Shown here: positions 4,285 to 60,367 of the stretch, piece by piece
Layout of the letters: every line of letters starts with the position of its first letter
Numbering within the stretch: the stretch's first letter is position 1
Assembly: GCA_046723845.1 (NCBI GenBank)
Contig: JBKOVG010000150.1
Span: forward strand, 5,491 to 69,490
Reading direction: 5' to 3'
DNA from: Candidatus Methylomirabilota bacterium
GTDB taxonomy: Bacteria > Methylomirabilota > Methylomirabilia > Rokubacteriales > CSP1-6
DNA: 64,000 bases
The notes under the pieces: generated by a model
Seen by the model: the letters and a program-made list of their open reading frames with translations, nothing else
Databases searched by the model: none
Told to the model about the DNA's origin: nothing
Made by a program: the position numbers and the translations under genes

Positions 4285-4458
4285 CCCATTCTCGGAGCGC
4301 GAGGCGGGGCGGGGCCTGTCGTCGGGGGCGGGGGAGCGCTCCAGCTCCGTCACCCGCTCGCCTGACTCGCCGCCCTCCAGGCGGCGCACAGGACGAGGGG
4401 GTCCCACTCCGCCAGAGCGCTCCCCGCCTCCGCCGCCACCCGCCCCGGTCACACGTCC
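4285..4458 (-). repeat. MITE/REP-like repeat, copy B (inverted orientation), sited between the convergent M20-peptidase and DUF1624 genes
   Basis: The reverse complement aligns with copies A and C across the full core (…ggcggagtgggaccccctcgtcctgtgcgccgcc…gcgagcgggtgac…ccccgacgacaggcccc…). It ends 4 nt from the DUF1624 gene stop codon. Confidence 0.7.
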
Positions 4459-7096: not shown

Positions 7097-7424
7097 GGCG
7101 TGGCGAGCATACCACGGCTCGTTGCATGGGAGTCGCCAGAAGTGAGGCAACGTACTGATTTGACGGTGGTTCATCTCCCCTGGTGTGGCTGGGTGCTACG
7201 GGAATCTGCACGTTTCCGTGCTACGGGCGTGGCGTGTCAAGCGTGGAGCAGGGCGAGCATGTGCGTTTCGGGGCATGGAGATCGGCCCGTCCTGCCCCTG
7301 TGGATCGACTTCTGCCGGCACCTGCCAACTACGTGAGACGCAGGATTTCAGGCGCGGGGCTTGCAGCCCTACCTCTCATATGGGCACGGAGAACCAAAAA
7401 TGGACATCGAGCGTCACTCACGGT

Positions 7425-7801
7425 GGCAAGAACTGGGACACCAAGTCGGGGCACCCTCGCACGGTGCCGCTGACGCAGCGGGTGGGCGGAAGCGCCCCTT
7501 CACCGGGCTGCGCTACCGGGACGTGCGGAAGATCTGGTACCAGGCCTGAGACCACCTTGGCTTCGCCGACGACCCGCAGTGGGTCATCCACATGCTGCGC
7601 CACACCTGCCCCTCGCGCCTCGTACAGGGTGGCGCAGAGATCCAGTACGTCATGAAGTGGCTCGGCCACGCGACCATCAGCATCACGATGCGGTACGCGC
7701 ACCTAGCACCAAAGAGCCTCGACAAGCTCACGGCGATCCTCGACCAGCAGCCCGAGGAGAAGCCGCGCACGCTGGCCGTGGTCAAGGAGCAGAAGGGATG
7801 A
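7425..7801 (+). pseudogene. Tyrosine recombinase (phage integrase) C-terminal remnant with frameshifts and an internal stop. It marks the left end of a degraded integrative element.
   Basis: Three frames together give KSGHPRTVPLTQRV / FTGLRYRDVRKIWYQA* / HMLRHTCPSRLVQGGAEIQYVMKWLGHATISITMRYAHL. These are the catalytic box I, box II (HxLRHT) and LGH..TxxYxH tyrosine motifs of a tyrosine recombinase. No intact N-terminal domain is present. Confidence 0.7.
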
Positions 7802-7883
7802 GCGACACCCGAGTGTGGAAAGCCGCCCCGCCGTGCCCGCCTCTGACATCAGAGCGGGTGCTGGCGTGGCTGAGGAGTAAGTG

Positions 7884-8045
7884 ATGTTCTGGACCCGCAA
7901 GACGAGGGCAGACGGGCACTGCTACGCCTGCGCCGCCGAGGGGACGTGCGACTGCCGTGTCTGCGAGGAGAAGCGCGTCCTCGCCGCTCCGATTGTGGCG
8001 CAGGATGTGGCGCAGGCGCCACCAAGTAGCGCCACCGATCGCTAA
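7884..8045 (+). CDS. Small Cys-rich protein (53 aa), zinc-ribbon-like, in the integrative island
   Basis: ATG preceded by GAGGAG at a 5-nt spacing. Translation MFWTRKTRADGHCYACAAEGTCDCRVCEEKRVLAAPIVAQDVAQAPPSSATDR contains CxxC...CxCxxC. It falls below the 60-aa ORF-track cutoff. Confidence 0.35.
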   Translation: MFWTRKTRADGHCYACAAEGTCDCRVCEEKRVLAAPIVAQDVAQAPPSSATDR

Positions 8046-8196
8046 GATTCAACTACTTGCAGCACCGGAAGTCAGTGGAAGTGAAGTGGCATTCAAGATC
8101 CTCTCGCTGACACGATAGTCTCCCAGAACCGCGCCCTATCTGGTGAATCTGCCGGTGTGGGTGCGGTAGCGAGACCATCGTGTCACGGTATGTCAG

Positions 8197-8637
8197 TTGC
8201 CCCACTGCGCCGACGATCCTCCGTTCTGCTGGCCCGCCGTCCCTTGCGAAGGCCACGAACATCTCCCAGCCCGCCAGCTTCACGTAGCCATGCGTCCGCA
8301 CGATCTCCACCACGACTCCACCACCGATGCTCTTTGGAATCCAGATCAAGGCGGGGCGTTCTGTGGGAAGTGCGCGCTGCCCGCACCGTGGCTCTCGCGT
8401 GACACCCTCATGGACTGGCTCACGCATCAGGTGCAGGCCGACGAGAGCGTGTCCGATGTGAACCGGGTTGAACTCCGGGCGATCTTGGAGCGGCTCAAGG
8501 CGATGGACCCGGAGGACACGAAGGCTGTCTCAGCATGGCAGCGGTTTCAGGTACTCGCGCCGAAGGTGTGGGACGCCACGAAGCCGGTGCGCGATGCGCT
8601 GATCGGTGAAGCGGTGAGGTACGCGCTGGGCCTCTGA
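8197..8637 (+). CDS. Hypothetical protein (island cargo). Alternative start at 8410 (MDWLTHQ...).
   Basis: The C-terminal half (MDWLTHQVQADESVSDVNRVELRAILERLKAMDPEDTKAVSAWQRF...) has very high GC3. The N-terminal half has CPHC...CGKC spacing. An overlapping antisense ORF (8053-8427) cannot be excluded. Confidence 0.35.
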   Translation: MPHCADDPPFCWPAVPCEGHEHLPARQLHVAMRPHDLHHDSTTDALWNPDQGGAFCGKCALPAPWLSRDTLMDWLTHQVQADESVSDVNRVELRAILERLKAMDPEDTKAVSAWQRFQVLAPKVWDATKPVRDALIGEAVRYALGL

Positions 8638-8918
8638 CAGCCCCACTAGATCGACTACACCACTAGACGGAACCGCCCACCCGTCGTCTTGATGGTCACT
8701 ATCGTTCTCCTCTCAGCTTCTCGAAGATGGACTTCATGTGGGACCACCCTACGACCAGACGTCAGACCTCCAGCGATGCGTGCGGTAGCGCGATGATCGT
8801 GCTGGCGAACACGAGCGCATCGGTGGTGACTTGCGAGGGAGATCCTTCCGCGCTATCGGTTCTGCTTTCCTTCTTGACGAGGCAGCACGAAGTTCTCAGG
8901 GTGTGCTAGGCTCTCGCC

Positions 8919-9581
8919 GTGCTGAGGTATTACTGGCGTCTGCTGCGAGCGCTCCCGACGCTCCTCCGCACGTCAACATCTCGCGTCAACGGCACCGTGT
9001 TCCTCGGAGGCGCACTGCTGACCGCTGTTCTGCCCACGCTGACGGCGAGATGGTCGATCACGCAGGGGCCGACTGCCGACCGGGTGAAGGCGTTCGCCGC
9101 GAGCTTCCCGCTGTGGTGGCCGCTCGTACCGATCAGCCTGCTGGTCCTGCTAGGTCTCCTCAAGGCGAACTACGAGCTTCACGCGAAGGTCGAGCGCCAG
9201 CGTAACCGACTGCGGGCGAAGCTGGATGATCGCGTGAAGCGGCATCGGGATGCGGAGGAGCTTGGTCGCCTTCGCAAGACCATGAGGAAGCGGTACTACG
9301 AGTGGCTTGAGGAACAGAAGTCGCACATCCCCGGACCGGACCCAGCGAAAGACCGGGCGCTCGACTTGCAGAACCAGATCGCGGACCTGCTGGAGAGGCG
9401 GTACGGGTTCGACATCAGAGATCGGTTCCTCACTGCTGACGATGCCGACTCTCAGCATCCCTCTGCTTTGGTCACTGTTTTGGTCTTGACCCGTGAGTAC
9501 GCGGGTCGCACCAAGCGTCTGAGGGGGATCATCCGCGACATCCGATCCGGCAAGATCAGGCGCACGGTAGAGTGGGGATGA
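8919..9581 (+). CDS. Hypothetical membrane protein with two TM segments and a charged coiled-coil C-terminal domain (island cargo)
   Basis: GTG start. TM helices VFLGGALLTAVLPTL and LWWPLVPISLLVLLGLL, followed by an Arg/Lys/Glu-rich helical region. No recognisable family. Confidence 0.45.
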   Translation: MLRYYWRLLRALPTLLRTSTSRVNGTVFLGGALLTAVLPTLTARWSITQGPTADRVKAFAASFPLWWPLVPISLLVLLGLLKANYELHAKVERQRNRLRAKLDDRVKRHRDAEELGRLRKTMRKRYYEWLEEQKSHIPGPDPAKDRALDLQNQIADLLERRYGFDIRDRFLTADDADSQHPSALVTVLVLTREYAGRTKRLRGIIRDIRSGKIRRTVEWG

Positions 9582-10228
9582 AGAGAAGTGTCTTGCCCGC
9601 GCTACGAACAGGAGCGGATCGGTGAGGACTTCGAGGGGAGATGGTTCCGCTATCGCGAGGAAGAATCAGGTTGACGTGTTCTGCTGCGTCGGCCCTGTCT
9701 TGGACTCGCATTCCTTCTCCTAGATCTTCCGGTCGAGGGTCGCGCGCACTGCACCGATCTGTTCCTCAATGGCGCGACGCCCGCCTTCAAGATGGAGAAG
9801 GTCCGGTGGGCGAGGAGATGACGGGCATGGCTGAGTTGAGCATCGAGGCGCCCGCGCTCAGCTTCAAGCTCAACGATGATGTGGCGGATGTCGGAGATGG
9901 TGAGCGTGGAGAAGCTGGGGCGGTGGTCCGGGTGATGTGCTGGCGTGGTGCGCTCCTCTCAGGTTGACTGCAGTGGACGGCCAGCGTAGCAGGGAGCGCA
10001 CGGCTGAGACCATCGGGAGAATCGCTCACGTAGTTCTACGCTCGCGGAGGAGGCCGATGGCTCCTAGCGACAGGGACGATCACGCAGGTGAGAAGGCGAT
10101 GGAGGCCCTCATGTCGTATCCCCTTGTGGACTGCTCGGGTCTTCTGCTACCGTCGAGATGCCAGTCGGAGATGAAGCGCAGTCAGATCGGGACGTTGCCA
10201 CACGCGACTCTACTCGCCGTCATGTTGT

Positions 10229-29994: not shown

Positions 29995-30187
29995 CTATTC
30001 ACGAATGCCGCACGTACGACCGGGGGGGGTGGCATCGGGGGCGGGGGAGCGCTCCGGCGGAGTGGGACCCCCTCGTCCTGTGCGCCGCCCGCAGGGCGGC
30101 CATTCAGGCGAGCGGGTGACGCAGCCGGAGCGCTTCCCCGTCCCCGACGACAGGCCCCGACCCGTCTCGCGCTTTGCGTGTTCGTGA
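29995..30187 (+). repeat. MITE/REP-like repeat, copy C (forward orientation), starting 7 nt after the enoyl-CoA hydratase stop
   Basis: Full-length copy with ttcacgaa…ttcgtgaa termini. Near-identical core to copy A, and to copy B in reverse complement. Confidence 0.7.
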
Positions 30188-33857: not shown

Positions 33858-35140
33858 TGCTCGAGCTGCTGTGGGTCCCCTTCCTGGCCTGTCTCGTCCT
33901 CACCGCCATCCACGTCTATCTCGGCCTCCACGTGCTCGCCCGGGGCGTCATCTTCGTGGACCTGGCTCTCGCCCAGGTCGCGGGCCTCGGCGTCACCGTG
34001 GCCTTCCTCGCCGGCCACCCGATCCAGAGCGAGGCGGCCTACTGGTACGCGCTCGCCTTCGCGGTGGGCGGCGCTGCCCTCTTCTCACTCACGCGCGCGG
34101 AGCGGGGCCGTCTGCCCCAGGAGGCGATCATCGGCATCGTCTACGCGGTGTCCGCCGCGCTCGCCGTACTGGTGGTGGATCGCGCGCCCCAGGGCGCGGA
34201 GCACATCAAGCAGCTCCTCGTGGGCGACGTCCTCACCGTCTCGCCCAGCGAGGTCGGTCGCCTCGCCCTCCTCTACGCGGTGATCGGTCTCCTCCACGTG
34301 CTCATGCGGCGACCGCTCCTCGAGATCTCCTTCGATGCCGAGGGCGCGGTGAGCCGGCGGCGCGCCGTGCGCTGGTGGGATTTCGCCTTCTACGTCACCT
34401 TCGGCGTGGTGGTGACGAGCTCGGTGCGGATCGCTGGCGTTCTCCTCGTATTCTCGTACCTGATCGTGCCAGCCGCCGTGGGGGCGCTGGCCACTCGCTC
34501 AGTGAGCCATCGTCTGCTCCTCGGCTGGGCGCTGGGAGCGCTCGTAAGCGCGGGCGGCCTCTGGGCGTCTTTCGCCTGGGATCTGCCGACGGGCGCCGCC
34601 ATCGTGGCGACCTTCGGAGCCCTCATGGCCGTGGTGGGCATGGCGTGCGGGGTGCGCGCCCTCGTGCGCGGCGGGTGGGCGTCCCTGGTCACGCTGGGGG
34701 TTGCCGCGTGCGCGGCGGTCGCGCTGGCCGGGCTCCTCCTCGCGCTGTTTCCCCGCATGGATCATCACTGGCTCGACTGGCTCGAGTCCGGGGTCCCCGC
34801 GGTGGAGCTCGCCTTCCTCTCTCCCGCCGAGCGTCAGGCGTGGCGGGACAGCCGCGAGGGCCTCGCGCGCGGAGCGAGCGAGCTGCGCCGTCTCCGCACC
34901 CTCCAGGAGGACGTCCAATGGGGCCGGGCCACGCTCTCCCCGGAGCAGCAGGAGCGGCTCCGGCAATTCCTCGCCGCGCGCGGTGAGATCACCGCGGGGG
35001 ATCGCTTCGTGCTCGCCACCCTTCGTGGGCGTGCGCGCGAACGGGAGCGCTACTGGCTCGGGGTGCCGTTGCTGCTGGCGGGCGCGGCGGGAGGGCTGGC
35101 CCTCGCCGCGCGCGAGCGCGGTGCGACGGTGACTAGCTGA
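33857..35140 (+). CDS. Metal ABC transporter permease (ZnuB/TroC-like) with a ~150-aa C-terminal extension. No adjacent ATPase gene.
   Basis: ATG overlaps the upstream stop. ABC-3 type permease core, then a charged helical extension ending in an extra TM helix (YWLGVPLLLAGAAGGLALAA). The 1129-aa ORF from 31751 is spurious. Confidence 0.65.
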   Translation: MLELLWVPFLACLVLTAIHVYLGLHVLARGVIFVDLALAQVAGLGVTVAFLAGHPIQSEAAYWYALAFAVGGAALFSLTRAERGRLPQEAIIGIVYAVSAALAVLVVDRAPQGAEHIKQLLVGDVLTVSPSEVGRLALLYAVIGLLHVLMRRPLLEISFDAEGAVSRRRAVRWWDFAFYVTFGVVVTSSVRIAGVLLVFSYLIVPAAVGALATRSVSHRLLLGWALGALVSAGGLWASFAWDLPTGAAIVATFGALMAVVGMACGVRALVRGGWASLVTLGVAACAAVALAGLLLALFPRMDHHWLDWLESGVPAVELAFLSPAERQAWRDSREGLARGASELRRLRTLQEDVQWGRATLSPEQQERLRQFLAARGEITAGDRFVLATLRGRARERERYWLGVPLLLAGAAGGLALAARERGATVTS

Positions 35141-36200
35141 GCGAGGCGCCGGGCACCGCGGGAGCCGGCACGTCCACCACTGTCTGATAGTTCGGATCGC
35201 GCCGGAGCTTCCAGATGAAGGCGTCGACCACGAAGTGGTGGATGTTGATGATGGCCGTCACGAGGAGCCCGCTCTGCACGATGGGGAAGCCGAGCAGCCA
35301 GTAGGCCTGCGGCCAGCGGAAGAAGAGCACCCAGCCGAGGATGAGGCAGGTCACGTAGAACGTCGCGGTGTGGAAGAACCAGCCGTGCGCGTTCGTGCTC
35401 CGCCGTGCCTGATCCTTGACGTGGAAGATGCTCACGATGGCCAGGTACTGGAGCCCGTGGAACACCGTGGCCCACACGAAGGCGTTGAAGTAGTTGAAGA
35501 GCGTCCACCAGACGGCATTGGACACGATCACCACGAGGCTGATCAGGGGTAAGGCCTGCTCGCGCCGCGAGCGTCCCCACAGCCAGAGAGCCGCGGGCGC
35601 GGCGAGGGAGAGCACGGCGAGCGCCTGCATCACCTGTTGGCGGAACGGAAACGCGGCGTAGAACGTGCGCGGGAGGATGAGGGCCATGCCGCCGTCGGGA
35701 TGCAGGAGCGTCCAGAAGAACGGCAGGAGGCACACCCAGAGGATGAGCCGCTTGCCCAGGCCCTCCAGCGCGCCCCCGGAGCGGTACGCGTACATCACGC
35801 TGAGGCCGTAGGCCTGGCGCGAGTAGTGATAGGGCGACCAGACGAGATAGAGCGCGAAGAGGTACCGGCCGAAGGGATCGCCCACCACGAGGGCGGCTGT
35901 CACCACCGCCACCGCGATCACCGGGAAGGCAAGGGTGAGGATGGGCCAGCTCTTCACGGCGTCCGGCCTCGTGTAGAGCCGCACGGTGGAGGCCGCGAAG
36001 TGCGCCCAGTTCGACACGAGGATCGCCCACCACAGGAAGGGGTCGTCGTCGGGAAAGTTGTAGCCGCCGAAGTAGAGGAAGGCGCCCGCGGCCCAGCTCA
36101 GGAGCCCGCCGATGAGCAGGTAGTCGAAGACCGGCCCCACGAACATCGTGCCGAGGGAGATCGTGCGCGGCGGAGCGGTGTCGGCGACGGCGCCATCCAT
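35133..36200 (-). CDS. Hypothetical polytopic membrane protein
   Basis: About ten predicted TM helices. Aromatic-rich, with no family assignment. Confidence 0.5.
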   Translation of the reverse strand: MDGAVADTAPPRTISLGTMFVGPVFDYLLIGGLLSWAAGAFLYFGGYNFPDDDPFLWWAILVSNWAHFAASTVRLYTRPDAVKSWPILTLAFPVIAVAVVTAALVVGDPFGRYLFALYLVWSPYHYSRQAYGLSVMYAYRSGGALEGLGKRLILWVCLLPFFWTLLHPDGGMALILPRTFYAAFPFRQQVMQALAVLSLAAPAALWLWGRSRREQALPLISLVVIVSNAVWWTLFNYFNAFVWATVFHGLQYLAIVSIFHVKDQARRSTNAHGWFFHTATFYVTCLILGWVLFFRWPQAYWLLGFPIVQSGLLVTAIINIHHFVVDAFIWKLRRDPNYQTVVDVPAPAVPGASLS

Positions 36201-37188: not shown

Positions 37189-37916
37189 TCAGCGGGCGGG
37201 CACGACGCCGAGCGCCGCGAGCTGGCACCGGAGATCGTCGCCCTTGTCGACGCGGAAGAGCACGCCCTGCATTCCCACCTGGCGCGCCGCCTCCACGTTG
37301 GTGTCGAGATCGTCCACGAACACGCACTCATGGGGCGACAGGCCCAGACGCTGCGCGGCCAGGATGAAGATGCCCGCCTCGGGCTTGGCCATCCCCACCT
37401 CCGCCGAGCAGACGATGTCGTCGAAGAGGTGATGGAGAGCGAGCTCGCCCTCGAGCCGGTCACGCAGGGAGAGGTCGGCGTTGCTCAGGATGGCGAGCTT
37501 GTAGGGCGGGCGAAGCTCACGCACCAGGGCGAGGTTCGGCGTGATGGCGCACTGCGAGGCGCGCCACTCCTCGTGGAGCGGAGGGAGCGGACGGCCCGCG
37601 CGCTCCTCGAGGGACCGGTGGGCGGCCTTCTGCCAGGCCAGCCGGTCGCCGCGGCCGCGCTCGATGTCTCTCCAGGTGTCCGTGCGGTACAGGGTCTCGA
37701 AGACGGAGAGCCGAGGCAGACCATGCGTGCGGTCGAGCTCGCGCGCGACGTCCCAGCGCATGTCCCAGAGCACCCCGCCGAAGTCGAAGATGACGCCGCG
37801 CAGACTAGCCTCTTGCCGGAGGGGGCTAGTGTGTTGACTATCCTCGGTTACGTGGCGGGTTGGAGAGCACTTGCCCCTCAGCTCAGGAACTCGTCGCGAC
37901 CAAAACCTGCAGCACA
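37189..37916 (-). CDS. HAD family hydrolase. The start is uncertain: there is an unusually long N-terminal region before motif I.
   Basis: Motif I IFDFGGVLWD and C-terminal motifs …ILSNAD…VFVDDLDTNVEAARQVGMQG. The only ATG upstream of motif I (37914-37916) leaves ~40 aa before it. The 5' end sits at the edge of the low-GC insertion. Confidence 0.55.
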
Positions 37917-38003
37917 TGGGAAGCCGCGCACGCTCTCCAACAATTCCCCCGATAAAACCGTGGCAGCCGATGAACCGCTCTCTCAAGTCTCATAACGGCT
38001 TCT

Positions 38004-39131
38004 CTATCGTGCGAGTTGTTTACGAATAACCGGACCTATTTTGTTAGCTAAAGCAACGGGCATCCACCGTGTCCACATATTCGAGAATTGCGACATCATT
38101 GACGAGGACGAATCAAATGTGCGCAGTGCGTCCTGCTGCTTCGACATCAGGTAATAATGAGAATGGGGAATGAACGTACATCCCCATTTTCTTTTGAAGT
38201 GCTCCTGACCGTCGTACCGTACGGAGCCGAAATCAAAGAAGGAATAACCATTCTCGGCTGCAAATCGGATAAATTCCCAATGGATCAGATCATTCGGTCT
38301 CAAATTCCAATATGCGGGATCTGAAACGATGTTGATGATGCTGATCCTGCGGCCACACGCAAAACCCAGCAGACCCGCCACCTTGATGGAATCCTTCATG
38401 GCCCAGAAAATCTTCATCTTATCGCCGAATGCTTTATAGCAGTCCAGGTAGTACCGCAGATTATGCGGAGGCACGCCGAGGCGCTTCATCGATTCGCAAT
38501 ACAGCGAGAAGAAAGGCCCGCGTAGCGTCGCCTCGTTGCATTCTTCTTTTACGGCTAGACCGGAGTTTCTTGCCTTGTTGACGGCCTTCCGGGCTTCATA
38601 ACTGATTTTTCGCCGCCAGATCTCATCAACGTTTGAAGCCAACTCCAGGTAAGCTAGTAAATGCGGATGTCGGCCAGCGAATAGCTCTTCGTTGAGACTC
38701 GACGGGATTCCGTGGTTGCCATTGATCTCCAGCGTCACGTCTTTAAATTTCTTTGCGATGTGCGCGCGCAGAGAGCCCACGATTTCTCTGATTTCATCGA
38801 GATCCAACTCGGCCGCGACCAGCAGTCCGCCATACTCAGAAAATGGCTGGCTGATCAATTTGCGGCCGAACAAAAGGCTCCGGGTGAGTGCCATCGGAAC
38901 CACCGCAACGATCTCGCTGCCTTTGACGAAACAAATGCGTTGCGAGCGGAAGCCATAACACTCCGTCGCCATCCCGTAGTTGTACAGGTGCGCAAACCTG
39001 CCCTCGACGTTGCTCTCGACGAACGCGTCCCAGGTTCCTTGATCCTGCCAATCGTCTCTTATCCGAGGCAACTCCCTCTGCGAAGAGTGGACCCTCCCAG
39101 CACCGTTAGGTGACGTTGCTTCCATAAACAA
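38004..39131 (-). CDS. FemAB-family / CelD-like GNAT-fold acyltransferase (similar to PEP-CTERM/exosortase-associated FemAB proteins) on a low-GC insertion
   Basis: 375 aa at roughly 48-50% GC in a ~70% GC context. The FemAB-like two-lobed acyltransferase signature is spread along its length (…YNYGMATECYGF…FEYGGLL…LRYYLDCYKAFGDKMKIFWA…FDFGSVRYDGQEHFKRKWG…). Confidence 0.6.
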   Translation of the reverse strand: MFMEATSPNGAGRVHSSQRELPRIRDDWQDQGTWDAFVESNVEGRFAHLYNYGMATECYGFRSQRICFVKGSEIVAVVPMALTRSLLFGRKLISQPFSEYGGLLVAAELDLDEIREIVGSLRAHIAKKFKDVTLEINGNHGIPSSLNEELFAGRHPHLLAYLELASNVDEIWRRKISYEARKAVNKARNSGLAVKEECNEATLRGPFFSLYCESMKRLGVPPHNLRYYLDCYKAFGDKMKIFWAMKDSIKVAGLLGFACGRRISIINIVSDPAYWNLRPNDLIHWEFIRFAAENGYSFFDFGSVRYDGQEHFKRKWGCTFIPHSHYYLMSKQQDALRTFDSSSSMMSQFSNMWTRWMPVALANKIGPVIRKQLAR

Positions 39132-39135
39132 ATTC

Positions 39136-39420
39136 CTAGTACTTGCCCTTGGTCTTTCCCGCCGTGGACGGATCGGGCGCCTTCACCGGCGGCCCGATGT
39201 CTCCGCCGAGGGCAACCCACCCGCGGTCCTTCATGCAGTCTTCGTCGAGGACCTTGGTCTTCTTGTCGGTACAGGCGGTGCGATCACGCTCGAAGTCGGC
39301 GGTGGTGTAGTTCACGTTGGGCTTGTACCACTGCCTGTCGGGCGGCCCTTCCGAGCAGCCGGTGGCGAGGACGAGGAGTCCGATGGGGAGGAGCGCAATC
39401 AGTCCCTTCATGAAGCGCAT
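39136..39420 (-). CDS. Small lipoprotein (94 aa)
   Basis: MRFMKGLIALLPIGLLVLATGCSEGPP: a canonical signal peptide with lipobox LATGC. Confidence 0.7.
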   Translation of the reverse strand: MRFMKGLIALLPIGLLVLATGCSEGPPDRQWYKPNVNYTTADFERDRTACTDKKTKVLDEDCMKDRGWVALGGDIGPPVKAPDPSTAGKTKGKY

Positions 39421-59804: not shown

Positions 59805-60367
59805 GTGAGCTTTCGACTCGTGGCCGCCATCGTCGCCCTCGTCCTCGGCGGGAGCATCCCAGCCCTCGCCGGTCCCGCCTTCGTGAACGGCATCACCGTA
59901 CCCGCCGACACCCTCGATCTGTCCGGCGATCCCATCGCCCTCAACCAGCGCCTCGGCATGTTCTCCGATCTCTACTACGATCCCAATCGCAACCAGTGGT
60001 GGGGGCTCAGTGATCGCGGGGCGGGCGGCGGCACTCTGCCCTACGACACCCGCGTGCAGCAGTTCACCATCGACATCAACCCGAGCACGGGCGCCATCTC
60101 CAACTTCCACGTGGTCCAGACCGTGGAGTCCAGTGCGACCTCGGTACCTTCAACAACTGGTTCTCGATCAACGCCGACGGCTCCGTGGGCAGCGCCTTCC
60201 TCGGATCCACGAGCGGCTTCGCCCTCATCCCCGGGGTCCTCTACGCCTTCAAGAGCGTGGGGACGGATCTGGCCGACTACGTGGGCCCCGTCCCCCTGCC
60301 CGCGACGTGGTCATTCCTCCTCGCGGGCCGCGGCATGATCGTCTTGCAGGGCCGGCGGCGCTCCTGA
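59805..60367 (+). pseudogene. Secreted PEP-CTERM-like protein interrupted by a frameshift near 60110-60130
   Basis: Frame 1 gives a signal peptide plus …FVNGITVPADTLDLSGDPIALNQRLGMFSDLYYDPNRNQWWGLSDRG…HVVQTVE. A second frame continues …FNNWFSINADGSVGSAFLGSTSGFALIPGVLYAF…VGPVPLPATWSFLLAGRGMIVLQGRRRS. The ending is a VP(E/L)P-ATW-hydrophobic-RRR sorting-signal-like tail. Confidence 0.5.

Follow-up and report, generated by a model that had tools for sequence, protein, structure and literature searches.

The enzymes with which the gene studied here is best compared are tandem-GNAT transferases of several kinds. FemX, FemA, FemB and MurM (PF02388) are aminoacyl-tRNA-dependent transferases that act on the peptidoglycan bridge, and FemA carries a coiled-coil arm. 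Sba18 and Sbb17 (PDB 9wqy and 9wqw) are natural-product enzymes that act on streptothrisamine, while the family TIGR03019 (pepcterm_femAB) comprises the FemAB proteins associated with XrtA/PEP-CTERM exosortase systems and their exopolysaccharide (EPS) loci. Our literature search found no paper characterising a FemAB-related EPS gene, and in the literature aminoacyl-tRNA-dependent exopolysaccharide aminoacylation was found demonstrated neither for TIGR03019 nor for the family described below. Here we analysed a 64,000-nt stretch of DNA (the window) from Candidatus Methylomirabilota bacterium (assembly GCA_046723845.1, contig JBKOVG010000150.1, positions 5,491–69,490), in which a FemAB-like gene lies on an AT-rich insert of 1,327 bp between a lipoprotein gene and a HAD hydrolase gene.

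The insert was the sole strong trough in the guanine-plus-cytosine (GC) profile of the window. With 500-nt windows, the mean GC was 0.693 (standard deviation 0.038); those starting at 37701–38801 had values of 0.48–0.59, falling to 0.48–0.55 in the core of the trough (~37.8–39.1 kb), and the only other one below 0.60 started at 9401 (0.598). An initial annotation of the window had placed a low-GC insertion at 37800–39135 and had called it by far the most AT-rich stretch present. Both statements held, and comparison with empty sites set the true boundaries at 37809–39135. The proposed check of codon usage gave a clearly non-host rather than a host-like pattern: against 41 host-like genes of the window, the FemAB-like gene had a third-position GC (GC3) of 0.623 versus 0.920 ± 0.019 (z = −15.3), an index resembling the codon adaptation index of 0.27 versus 0.73 ± 0.05 (z = −9.6), and a GC content with a z of −6.6.

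To find relatives of the site, the adjacent HAD protein was used as a query on reference genomes, which yielded 44 loci, mostly from metagenome-assembled genomes of Candidatus Methylomirabilota/Rokubacteria. The initial annotation had proposed looking in relatives for an uninterrupted HAD gene, and relatives with an uninterrupted site exist: in ~32 of the 44 loci the lipoprotein and HAD genes abut or overlap, with no FemAB gene between them, and the gene order is a divergent MetE-like gene, the 94-aa lipoprotein, HAD and an F420-type LLM oxidoreductase. In the close empty-site relative L009, flanking proteins were 92–94% identical to those of the window and the flanks ~89–90% identical in nucleotides. 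Its empty site reads GGGCAAGTACTAG directly followed by TCTGCGCGGCGTCATCTTCGAC, and the window has both halves, split by 1,327 bp. By these empty sites and by its deviating GC and codon usage, the AT-rich stretch is genuinely foreign DNA that was gained recently, and the event was a single-gene horizontal acquisition. The features of the site are as follows.

37809–39135: horizontally acquired insert (1,327 bp), made up of the FemAB-like gene and a 195-nt 3′ tail, delimited by the GC trough and by alignment to the empty-site loci L009, L010 and L012.
38004–39125, minus strand: gene for a FemAB-family tandem-GNAT transferase of 373 aa, with an ATG start and AGGA 8 nt upstream.
39131 and 39071, minus strand: alternative in-frame TTG starts of this gene, the former giving 375 aa, the latter at the consensus start position of the family.
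37809–38003, minus strand: the insert's 3′ tail, non-coding and intermediate in GC.
39136–39420, minus strand: host gene for a 94-aa putative lipoprotein, whose signal peptide has an LATGC lipobox; GC3 0.87; its stop codon is the insertion target.
37189–37803, minus strand: intact host gene for a HAD-IA hydrolase, with a probable CTG start at 37803–37801, 1 nt past the CTAG.
39136–39147, minus strand: left junction repeat GGCAAGTACTAG, with CTAG at 39139–39136 including the lipoprotein stop TAG.
37805–37817, minus strand: right junction repeat GGCAAGAGGCTAG, with CTAG at 37808–37805, an imperfect direct repeat of the target.

Flanking direct repeats were present, CTAG standing at both ends of the insert inside a 12/13-nt imperfect repeat; the left junction reads GGCAAGTACTAG followed by GAATTTG and the right one GGCAAGAGGCTAG followed by TCTGCG. 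CTAG is a rare sequence in this DNA, counted 62 times on both strands, and GGCAAG lay within 10 nt upstream of it only at the two insert junctions. A single cargo gene, CTAG at both ends and a precise empty site are shared with small islets integrated at microhomology and with IS5/IS630-type insertions into CTAG. The window insert differs from such islets in lacking a transposase and in not being bounded by its own terminal inverted repeats; the window retains no mobility gene, and no tRNA was found in it. A scan of the window with Rfam gave no match, a sigma-70 scan of the region found no promoter-like site, and terminator-like sites in the region were no more frequent than shuffles predict.

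Other modes of arrival were considered and rejected. A long target duplication is not supported, as the local alignment of the 195-nt tail with the 3′ end of the lipoprotein gene scored 17, the same as the shuffle mean, and only the 12/13-nt repeat is real. An integron gene cassette would have attC core sites (RYYYAAC...GTTRRRY), which the insert lacks; its junctions are CTAG and not G/TT, and the sole 10-bp stem in the tail, GTTGGAGAGC...GCTCTCCAAC, is wrongly ordered and off the attC consensus. For a phage, plasmid or defence origin, there were no phage matches and no PADLOC match, and plasmid matches were only 24–30% identical and lay on plasmids predicted to be non-mobilizable.

Related populations showed the same insertion in different states. 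A metagenome scan recovered nine FemAB copies at 90–97% identity. Five loci (L059–L063) share the insertion site of the window, with window-type junctions in L062 and L063, and identical insert junctions recurred in the independent assemblies L059, L061, L062 and L063. In L062 the flanks were ~89.5% identical to those of the window, the same distance as in the empty-site locus L009, and the FemAB gene was 95.2% identical. Because the gene has diverged less than its flanks, the insert is younger than the split of the lineages and owes its spread to recombination; the lineages are polymorphic for its presence.

At the left CTAG of three sister loci, and only there, we found an internally deleted insertion sequence (IS) of the IS5 family. 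The remnant is flanked by CTAG and ends in terminal inverted repeats, AAGTCATTTCAAAACC, that are perfect over 16 bp (17 bp including the flanking G/C). Its coding content is the DUF4096 domain (64.5 bits) from the N-terminus of an IS4/IS5-family transposase. The sister strains share with IS5/IS630-type insertion this remnant at the very same CTAG. Its positions are:

L060, 305–660: IS5-family remnant, 356 nt.
L061, 1397–1752: IS5-family remnant, 356 nt.
L059, contig start to 159: at least the right end of the remnant.

In L061, the right terminal repeat of the remnant gives the FemAB open reading frame (ORF) an in-frame ATG.

In other sister strains (L003, L055–L058 and L120), a near-identical copy of the gene sits in a glycosyltransferase (GT) cluster. 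Similarity to the window begins abruptly at position 39390, 30 nt inside the lipoprotein gene, and the relocated unit of ~1.7 kb then runs through a piece of the lipoprotein gene with its stop, the IS remnant (its first ~75 nt), a leader that is shortened and has an ATG at the consensus start of the family, the FemAB gene and the tail. As scars the unit keeps 255 nt from the lipoprotein gene and 75 nt from the IS5 remnant, and some contigs also retain 27 nt of HAD. The left end of the unit is identical despite three different upstream contexts, namely an MBL-fold gene (L056–L058), an AsnB-like gene (L055 and L120) and other sequence (L003). The right ends vary: L056–L058 end 6 nt beyond an inverted-repeat arm, L120 is without most of the tail, and L055 and L003 keep the CTAG and part of HAD (27 nt in L055 and ~15 nt, to the contig end, in L003). 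The repeat is placed as follows.

L058, 951–982 and 2556–2587: 32-nt inverted repeat TGCCGGAGGGGGGCCTAGTGTTGACTATCCTC bracketing the relocated unit, also found in L055–L057 and L003.
Window, 37814–37845, minus strand: right arm of the 32-nt inverted repeat, GAGGATAGTCAACACACTAGCCCCCTCCGGCA; the left arm is absent from the window; alignment score 50 versus a shuffle maximum of 29.

This repeat matched no identifiable element, and neither it nor the IS terminal repeat occurred outside the FemAB unit in the 1.27 Mb searched. Transposon ends and a fold-back rearrangement are both candidates for its origin.

Downstream of the relocated unit lie a GT4 gene, a GT1 gene, an FkbM methyltransferase gene and a second GT4 gene. 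The best NCBIfam matches in the cluster were XrtA/PEP-CTERM-system families below their cutoffs: TIGR03087 (stp1-like GTs) with 227 and 101 bits, and TIGR03108 with 164 bits for the upstream AsnB (amidotransferase) fragment. A version of the cluster without the FemAB gene was present in L135–L137; in L135 and L136 the same cluster is ~96.5% identical and lacks the unit, and the 3′ end of its GT4 gene abuts two convergent GT4 genes. The match of L058 and L120 to this unit-free cluster breaks 35–47 nt beyond the GT4 stop. Since the lipoprotein–HAD adjacency is ancestral and the unit carries scraps of the lipoprotein gene, of HAD and of the IS, movement from the lipoprotein site to the glycan cluster is the most economical order of events. 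That the junctions of the unit are seen again in independent assemblies argues against chimeras.

We then characterised the encoded protein. The initial annotation had described a single FemAB-family, GNAT-fold gene of 375 aa, in agreement with the ORF read from TTG (375 aa; 373 aa from ATG) and with Pfam, where both Acetyltransf_6 (PF13480; 57.9 bits, threshold 22) and FemAB (PF02388; 48.2 bits, threshold 24) passed. The best NCBIfam model was TIGR03019, which aligned end to end (residues 33–373 to model positions 2–329 of 330) at a similar length and with 154.3 bits, below the equivalog cutoff of 260.35. The peptidoglycan FemX equivalog NF047883 matched partially with 21.6 bits (cutoff 500), so that of the two families named for comparison in the initial annotation, the exosortase-associated one scored best. 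A large protein database contained a family of ~355-aa relatives that were 43–53% identical, one that was 67% identical and one near-copy at 97%. All sampled members of this clade scored 125–145 bits on TIGR03019, and annotated TIGR03019 proteins on N. vulgaris megaplasmids were ~30% identical to the window protein, which by these scores and alignments belongs to a sister subfamily of TIGR03019 and not to the equivalog.

From its conservation the gene is judged functional. The protein retains 47 of the 47 invariant columns of a 57-sequence alignment, including the motifs SQPFSEYGG, HGNHG, SMKRLGVPPH, RPNDLxHWE and FDFGSVRYxGQxxFKxKWG, and the ratio of nonsynonymous to synonymous substitution rates (dN/dS) of 0.14–0.26 across nine intact copies of equal core length is indicative of purifying selection. 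The AlphaFold (AF2) model had a pLDDT of 92.8 and a pTM of 0.90. A tandem GNAT fold was supported by Foldseek matches to FemX, FemA and Sbb17 (E of 1e-12 to 1e-14, TM 0.6–0.8); against the PDB, Sba18/Sbb17 ranked first, the FemX proteins of S. aureus and W. viridescens and FemA came next, and the MprF aminoacyl-phosphatidylglycerol synthases ranked below these. The top 11 Foldseek matches and all PDB profile matches were aminoacyl-tRNA-dependent enzymes, with FemX first in the profile search (E 4e-8). Lys311 (K311) is invariant in the 57-sequence alignment, and in the displayed sequences an F or Y stands directly before it; its motif position, read with the literature, suggests that it may correspond to Lys305 of FemX.

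With FemX, FemA, FemB and MurM the protein shares the tandem-GNAT fold (TM 0.63–0.73 to 6snr and 1xf8), an aromatic-Lys motif in a similar position and a score above the Pfam FemAB threshold, but its identity to the FemX structures is 15–16%, its clade has glycan genes instead of peptidoglycan genes as neighbours, and the clade has a family-specific C-terminal helical hairpin, SSS..M...W...P...GPxIRKxLxR. The AF2 model is also without the FemA-type arm. Sba18 and Sbb17 are the top structural matches (E ~1e-14, target-normalised TM 0.79–0.80), but they are 14–16% identical, and no natural-product gene context of their kind accompanies the window clade.

The genomic context of the family was examined by a census of 142 flanking ORFs at 45 loci, from which the 25 most frequent families were compared. 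These included 23 GT4/GT1 genes, 14 S-adenosylmethionine (SAM) methyltransferases, 8 polysaccharide deacetylases (6 of them with DUF3473) and sugar-nucleotide enzymes, and the FemAB-like clade is clearly glycan-associated. A relative of 50% identity, P0035, takes the slot of FemAB in a classic EPS operon of the XrtA type, in the order Poly_export, chain-length protein, ParA-like kinase, AAA_22, Polysacc_deac_1 with DUF3473, FemAB and GT1; the same gene order is listed for Rubrivivax (PMC3684757). This slot, between a DUF3473 polysaccharide deacetylase and a GT1, is shared with TIGR03019. Another relative, P0005, comes first in a cluster that continues with GT, NTP-transferase, methyltransferase and PIG-L genes. 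Unrelated metabolic genes surround P0018 and P0010, which are orphans, and the P0002 gene is placed after a NusG paralog. In L001 (9066–11329; also L002), the locus of the 67%-identical relative, a NusG-family paralog is followed by the FemAB-like gene and a 68-aa ORF, an arrangement that may provide dedicated antitermination for a glycan operon. A conserved FemAB–HAD pair, which L008 had suggested, was rejected, since the HADs concerned, with 37% identity over 65 aa, are not orthologues and HAD is absent from the 25 most frequent neighbour families of FemAB-like genes.

The initial annotation had further proposed a tie to a PEP-CTERM/exosortase system. This survives in part: TIGR03019 is the best-scoring curated family, and relatives and sister strains carry the gene in XrtA-type clusters, but the score stays below the cutoff (154 versus 260) and the window has no such genes. 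In contrast to the TIGR03019 genes, the window gene is an orphan without EPS or exosortase genes nearby. Among the 26 window proteins scanned with Pfam, none was an exosortase or EPS protein; they were aminotransferases, hydantoinases, acyl-CoA dehydrogenases, NADH-dehydrogenase subunits, GGT, a thiamine pyrophosphate (TPP) enzyme, an efflux system and the like. The neighbours of the insert (lipoprotein, HAD, LLM and MetE-like genes) do not make up an XrtA/EpsH-type EPS locus, while the surroundings of P0035 do, and those of the relocated copy in the sister strains approximately so. The link to XrtA-type polysaccharide loci is thus visible only in relatives (L004) and in sister strains. The PEP-CTERM-like secreted protein cited in support of the tie exists as an ORF pair, but it is frameshifted, marginal in score and distant:

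59805–60367, plus strand: gene for a small secreted protein split over two frames, with a signal peptide and a weak phytase-like start; the frame switches near 60105–60165.

The C-terminal 60 aa of the pair reached 20.8 against a threshold of 20.7 with the PEP-CTERM model of Pfam, and 18.7 against 35 with that of NCBIfam. The pair is either a frameshifted pseudogene or a sequencing error. Its tail is a hint of an exosortase system, present or past, in this genome; lying ~21 kb off, the gene is not physically linked to the insert and is not evidence of a functional link. Our literature search found no paper linking Rokubacteria with exosortase.

We favour, with a probability of about 0.62, the reading that a foreign gene for a FemABX-fold, probably aminoacyl-tRNA-dependent enzyme that modifies sugar polymers was acquired, kept and later relocated. 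The 1,327-bp segment would have integrated at the CTAG of the lipoprotein stop, splitting an ancestral overlapping lipoprotein–HAD pair and leaving CTAG at both ends, which would fit either a target duplication of the IS5/IS630 type or integration at microhomology. Its cargo would be a cytoplasmic tandem-GNAT enzyme from a sister clade of the XrtA/PEP-CTERM-associated FemAB family, taking an aminoacyl group from aminoacyl-tRNA, as the invariant aromatic-Lys motif HF-K311 suggests. The acceptor may be an amino group, such as that of a deacetylated amino sugar, on a polysaccharide or on its precursor linked to a lipid or nucleotide. Transcription of the gene in the window probably starts at the lipoprotein promoter and reaches it by read-through. 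After its acquisition it remained under purifying selection and spread among lineages diverged by ~10%, and in the sister strains the 1.7-kb unit would have moved into a GT cluster of the XrtA-system type. An extension of this reading is operon assembly in progress, in which an irrelevant first site and spread by recombination are followed by a move into the XrtA-type cluster, where the unit replaces two GT4 genes and the enzyme aminoacylates an exopolysaccharide; we put this forward only tentatively, as a scenario that is less likely than not.

Several points weigh against the favoured reading. The direction of relocation, from the landing site to the GT cluster, is deduced from passenger fragments. 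The equivalence of K311 with Lys305 of FemX rests on motif position, the best Pfam match is the generic GNAT domain Acetyltransf_6, and we infer both the donor (aminoacyl-tRNA or acyl-CoA) and the acceptor. The insert has neither terminal inverted repeats of its own nor a transposase, and as the window holds no glycan or exosortase genes, a partner pathway, if any, is elsewhere in the genome.

The donor is where the nearest alternative departs, an acyl-CoA-dependent GNAT (a CelD/BcsL-like N-acyltransferase) that acetylates or acylates a polysaccharide. The strength of Acetyltransf_6 in Pfam speaks for it, as do the names "GNAT family N-acetyltransferase" and "CelD/BcsL family acetyltransferase" given to relatives in several sources and the presence of CoA-dependent tandem GNATs (2wpw and Eis) among the lower Foldseek matches. 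However, the higher structural matches and the whole PDB profile search point to aminoacyl-tRNA, Pfam FemAB is over its threshold as well, and the invariant aromatic-Lys motif seems to stand where FemX and DhpH-C have their key Lys, which leaves this alternative unlikely, though a real contender. If aminoacyl-tRNA is the donor, the acceptor could instead be peptidoglycan precursors, with an enzyme of the FemX/MurM type adding an amino acid to the stem peptide and, for example, altering cross-links or conferring resistance to cell-wall-targeting toxins. The fold is FemX-like, and JGI names some relatives "lipid II:glycine glycyltransferase" or "serine/alanine adding enzyme"; the low NF047883 score, the low identity to FemX and the neighbouring GTs, methyltransferases and polysaccharide deacetylases, with no mur or peptidoglycan gene in the 25 most frequent neighbour families, make such a role quite improbable. 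A small-molecule or natural-product peptide synthase that uses aminoacyl-tRNA, in the manner of Sba18/Sbb17, PacB or DhpH-C, seems slightly less probable again. The two best Foldseek matches are of this kind, but identity to them is low, no biosynthetic-cluster-type family is among the 25 most frequent at the 45 loci, and the orphan positions in the window, L006 and L053 are without partner enzymes.

The remaining alternatives concern the gene's history. That it is a decaying, non-functional passenger would agree with the want of partner genes in the window and with an N-terminal extension and start codon that differ between strains, but nine intact copies of equal length, their dN/dS and the retention of every invariant residue make this very improbable. 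That low GC is intrinsic to the family and the gene native can draw on its being AT-richer than its flanks in 89% of 56 non-redundant loci, with a mean GC difference of −0.037. The first six loci had suggested family-wide AT-richness, and the larger sample reduced it to this mild bias; deficits above 0.10 were found only in some high-GC hosts, with the window gene (−0.18) among the most extreme, and many members in high-GC hosts have near-host GC3 (L075, L103 and L127). Strong deficits in a subset of high-GC hosts point to several independent acquisitions. Against a native gene stand also the ~32 empty sites, one of them with flanking proteins 92–94% identical, the GC3 of the gene and its divergence, lower than that of the flanks, by which this alternative is in effect refuted.

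The effect of the insertion on the HAD gene differed from expectation. The initial annotation had pointed to a 40-aa leader and an abnormal start (TTG or a late ATG) at the 5′ end of HAD and had suggested that the insertion clipped the gene. The leader is present, but the gene is unclipped, because from the CTAG followed by TCTGCGCGGCGTCATCTTCGAC onward it is intact from the same nucleotide as in empty-site genomes, and the loss of its start predates the insertion. In distant relatives HAD starts with a GTG 9 codons ahead of V-I-F-D-F, overlapping the lipoprotein stop. This GTG is already gone in the closest empty-site genomes (L009 and L011–L013), where a CTG one nucleotide after the lipoprotein TAG (UAG-U-CUG) is conserved. 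At window positions 37801–37808 and at the orthologous sites of L009–L014, no ATG, GTG or TTG was observed upstream of the catalytic Asp of HAD. HAD is probably translated from the CTG, judging from these alignments, and would originally have been coupled to termination of the lipoprotein ORF; the insert end (AAGAGG, 5 nt upstream of the CTG) may now serve for ribosome binding. Where the CTG start lies in the other genomes, the HAD relic of L055 reads ATG. The leader ORF has an in-frame ATG at 37917–37915 (37-aa leader) and an in-frame TTG at 37986, and it arose through two changes found only in the window, a 5-nt tandem duplication of CTGAG (37886–37877) and a 2-nt indel in the insert tail. 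L059 and L061, with the insert at the same site, have 18 open codons upstream of HAD, no canonical start and no long leader. The 40-aa leader is a lineage-specific by-product, particular to the window. A multi-pass membrane protein of 355 aa (35133–36200), which Rokubacteria conserve on the downstream side of the LLM gene, had no Pfam or NCBIfam match.

Two further observations were made in the window. A GC-rich palindromic repeat of 150 nt occurs three times (429–578, 4298–4447 and 30021–30171) and also in L062 (496–645); it has an identical 22-nt core, folds into one long hairpin (−102 kcal/mol, z −4.7), has no Rfam match and looks REP- or MITE-like (repetitive extragenic palindrome or miniature inverted-repeat transposable element). 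A region of ~3 kb (7200–10200), which includes the mild GC dip at 9401, has no ORF longer than 220 aa and none with host-like GC3, and may be non-coding or degraded.

The insertion, though well delimited, is a fairly ordinary case of horizontal gene transfer, and the record of the gene in multiple contexts across populations is more interesting than the insertion itself. For annotation, the label "FemAB / PEP-CTERM-associated" should not be carried over to this clade on the strength of the name. The clade is a subfamily of its own, widespread but uncharacterised, which falls under the curated cutoff yet occupies the same operon slot in some genomes. The main value of the data lies in the population snapshot, in which one gene, 95–98% identical between copies, is found in several reproducible contexts among uncultured Rokubacteria of soil. 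Empty sites are precisely defined for the first landing site as well as for the glycan cluster, and the snapshot provides a concrete, testable example of how a foreign accessory gene comes to join a polysaccharide locus. Should the enzyme prove to use aminoacyl-tRNA on a glycan, the FemAB component of exosortase-type EPS systems, long unexplained, would gain a chemistry.

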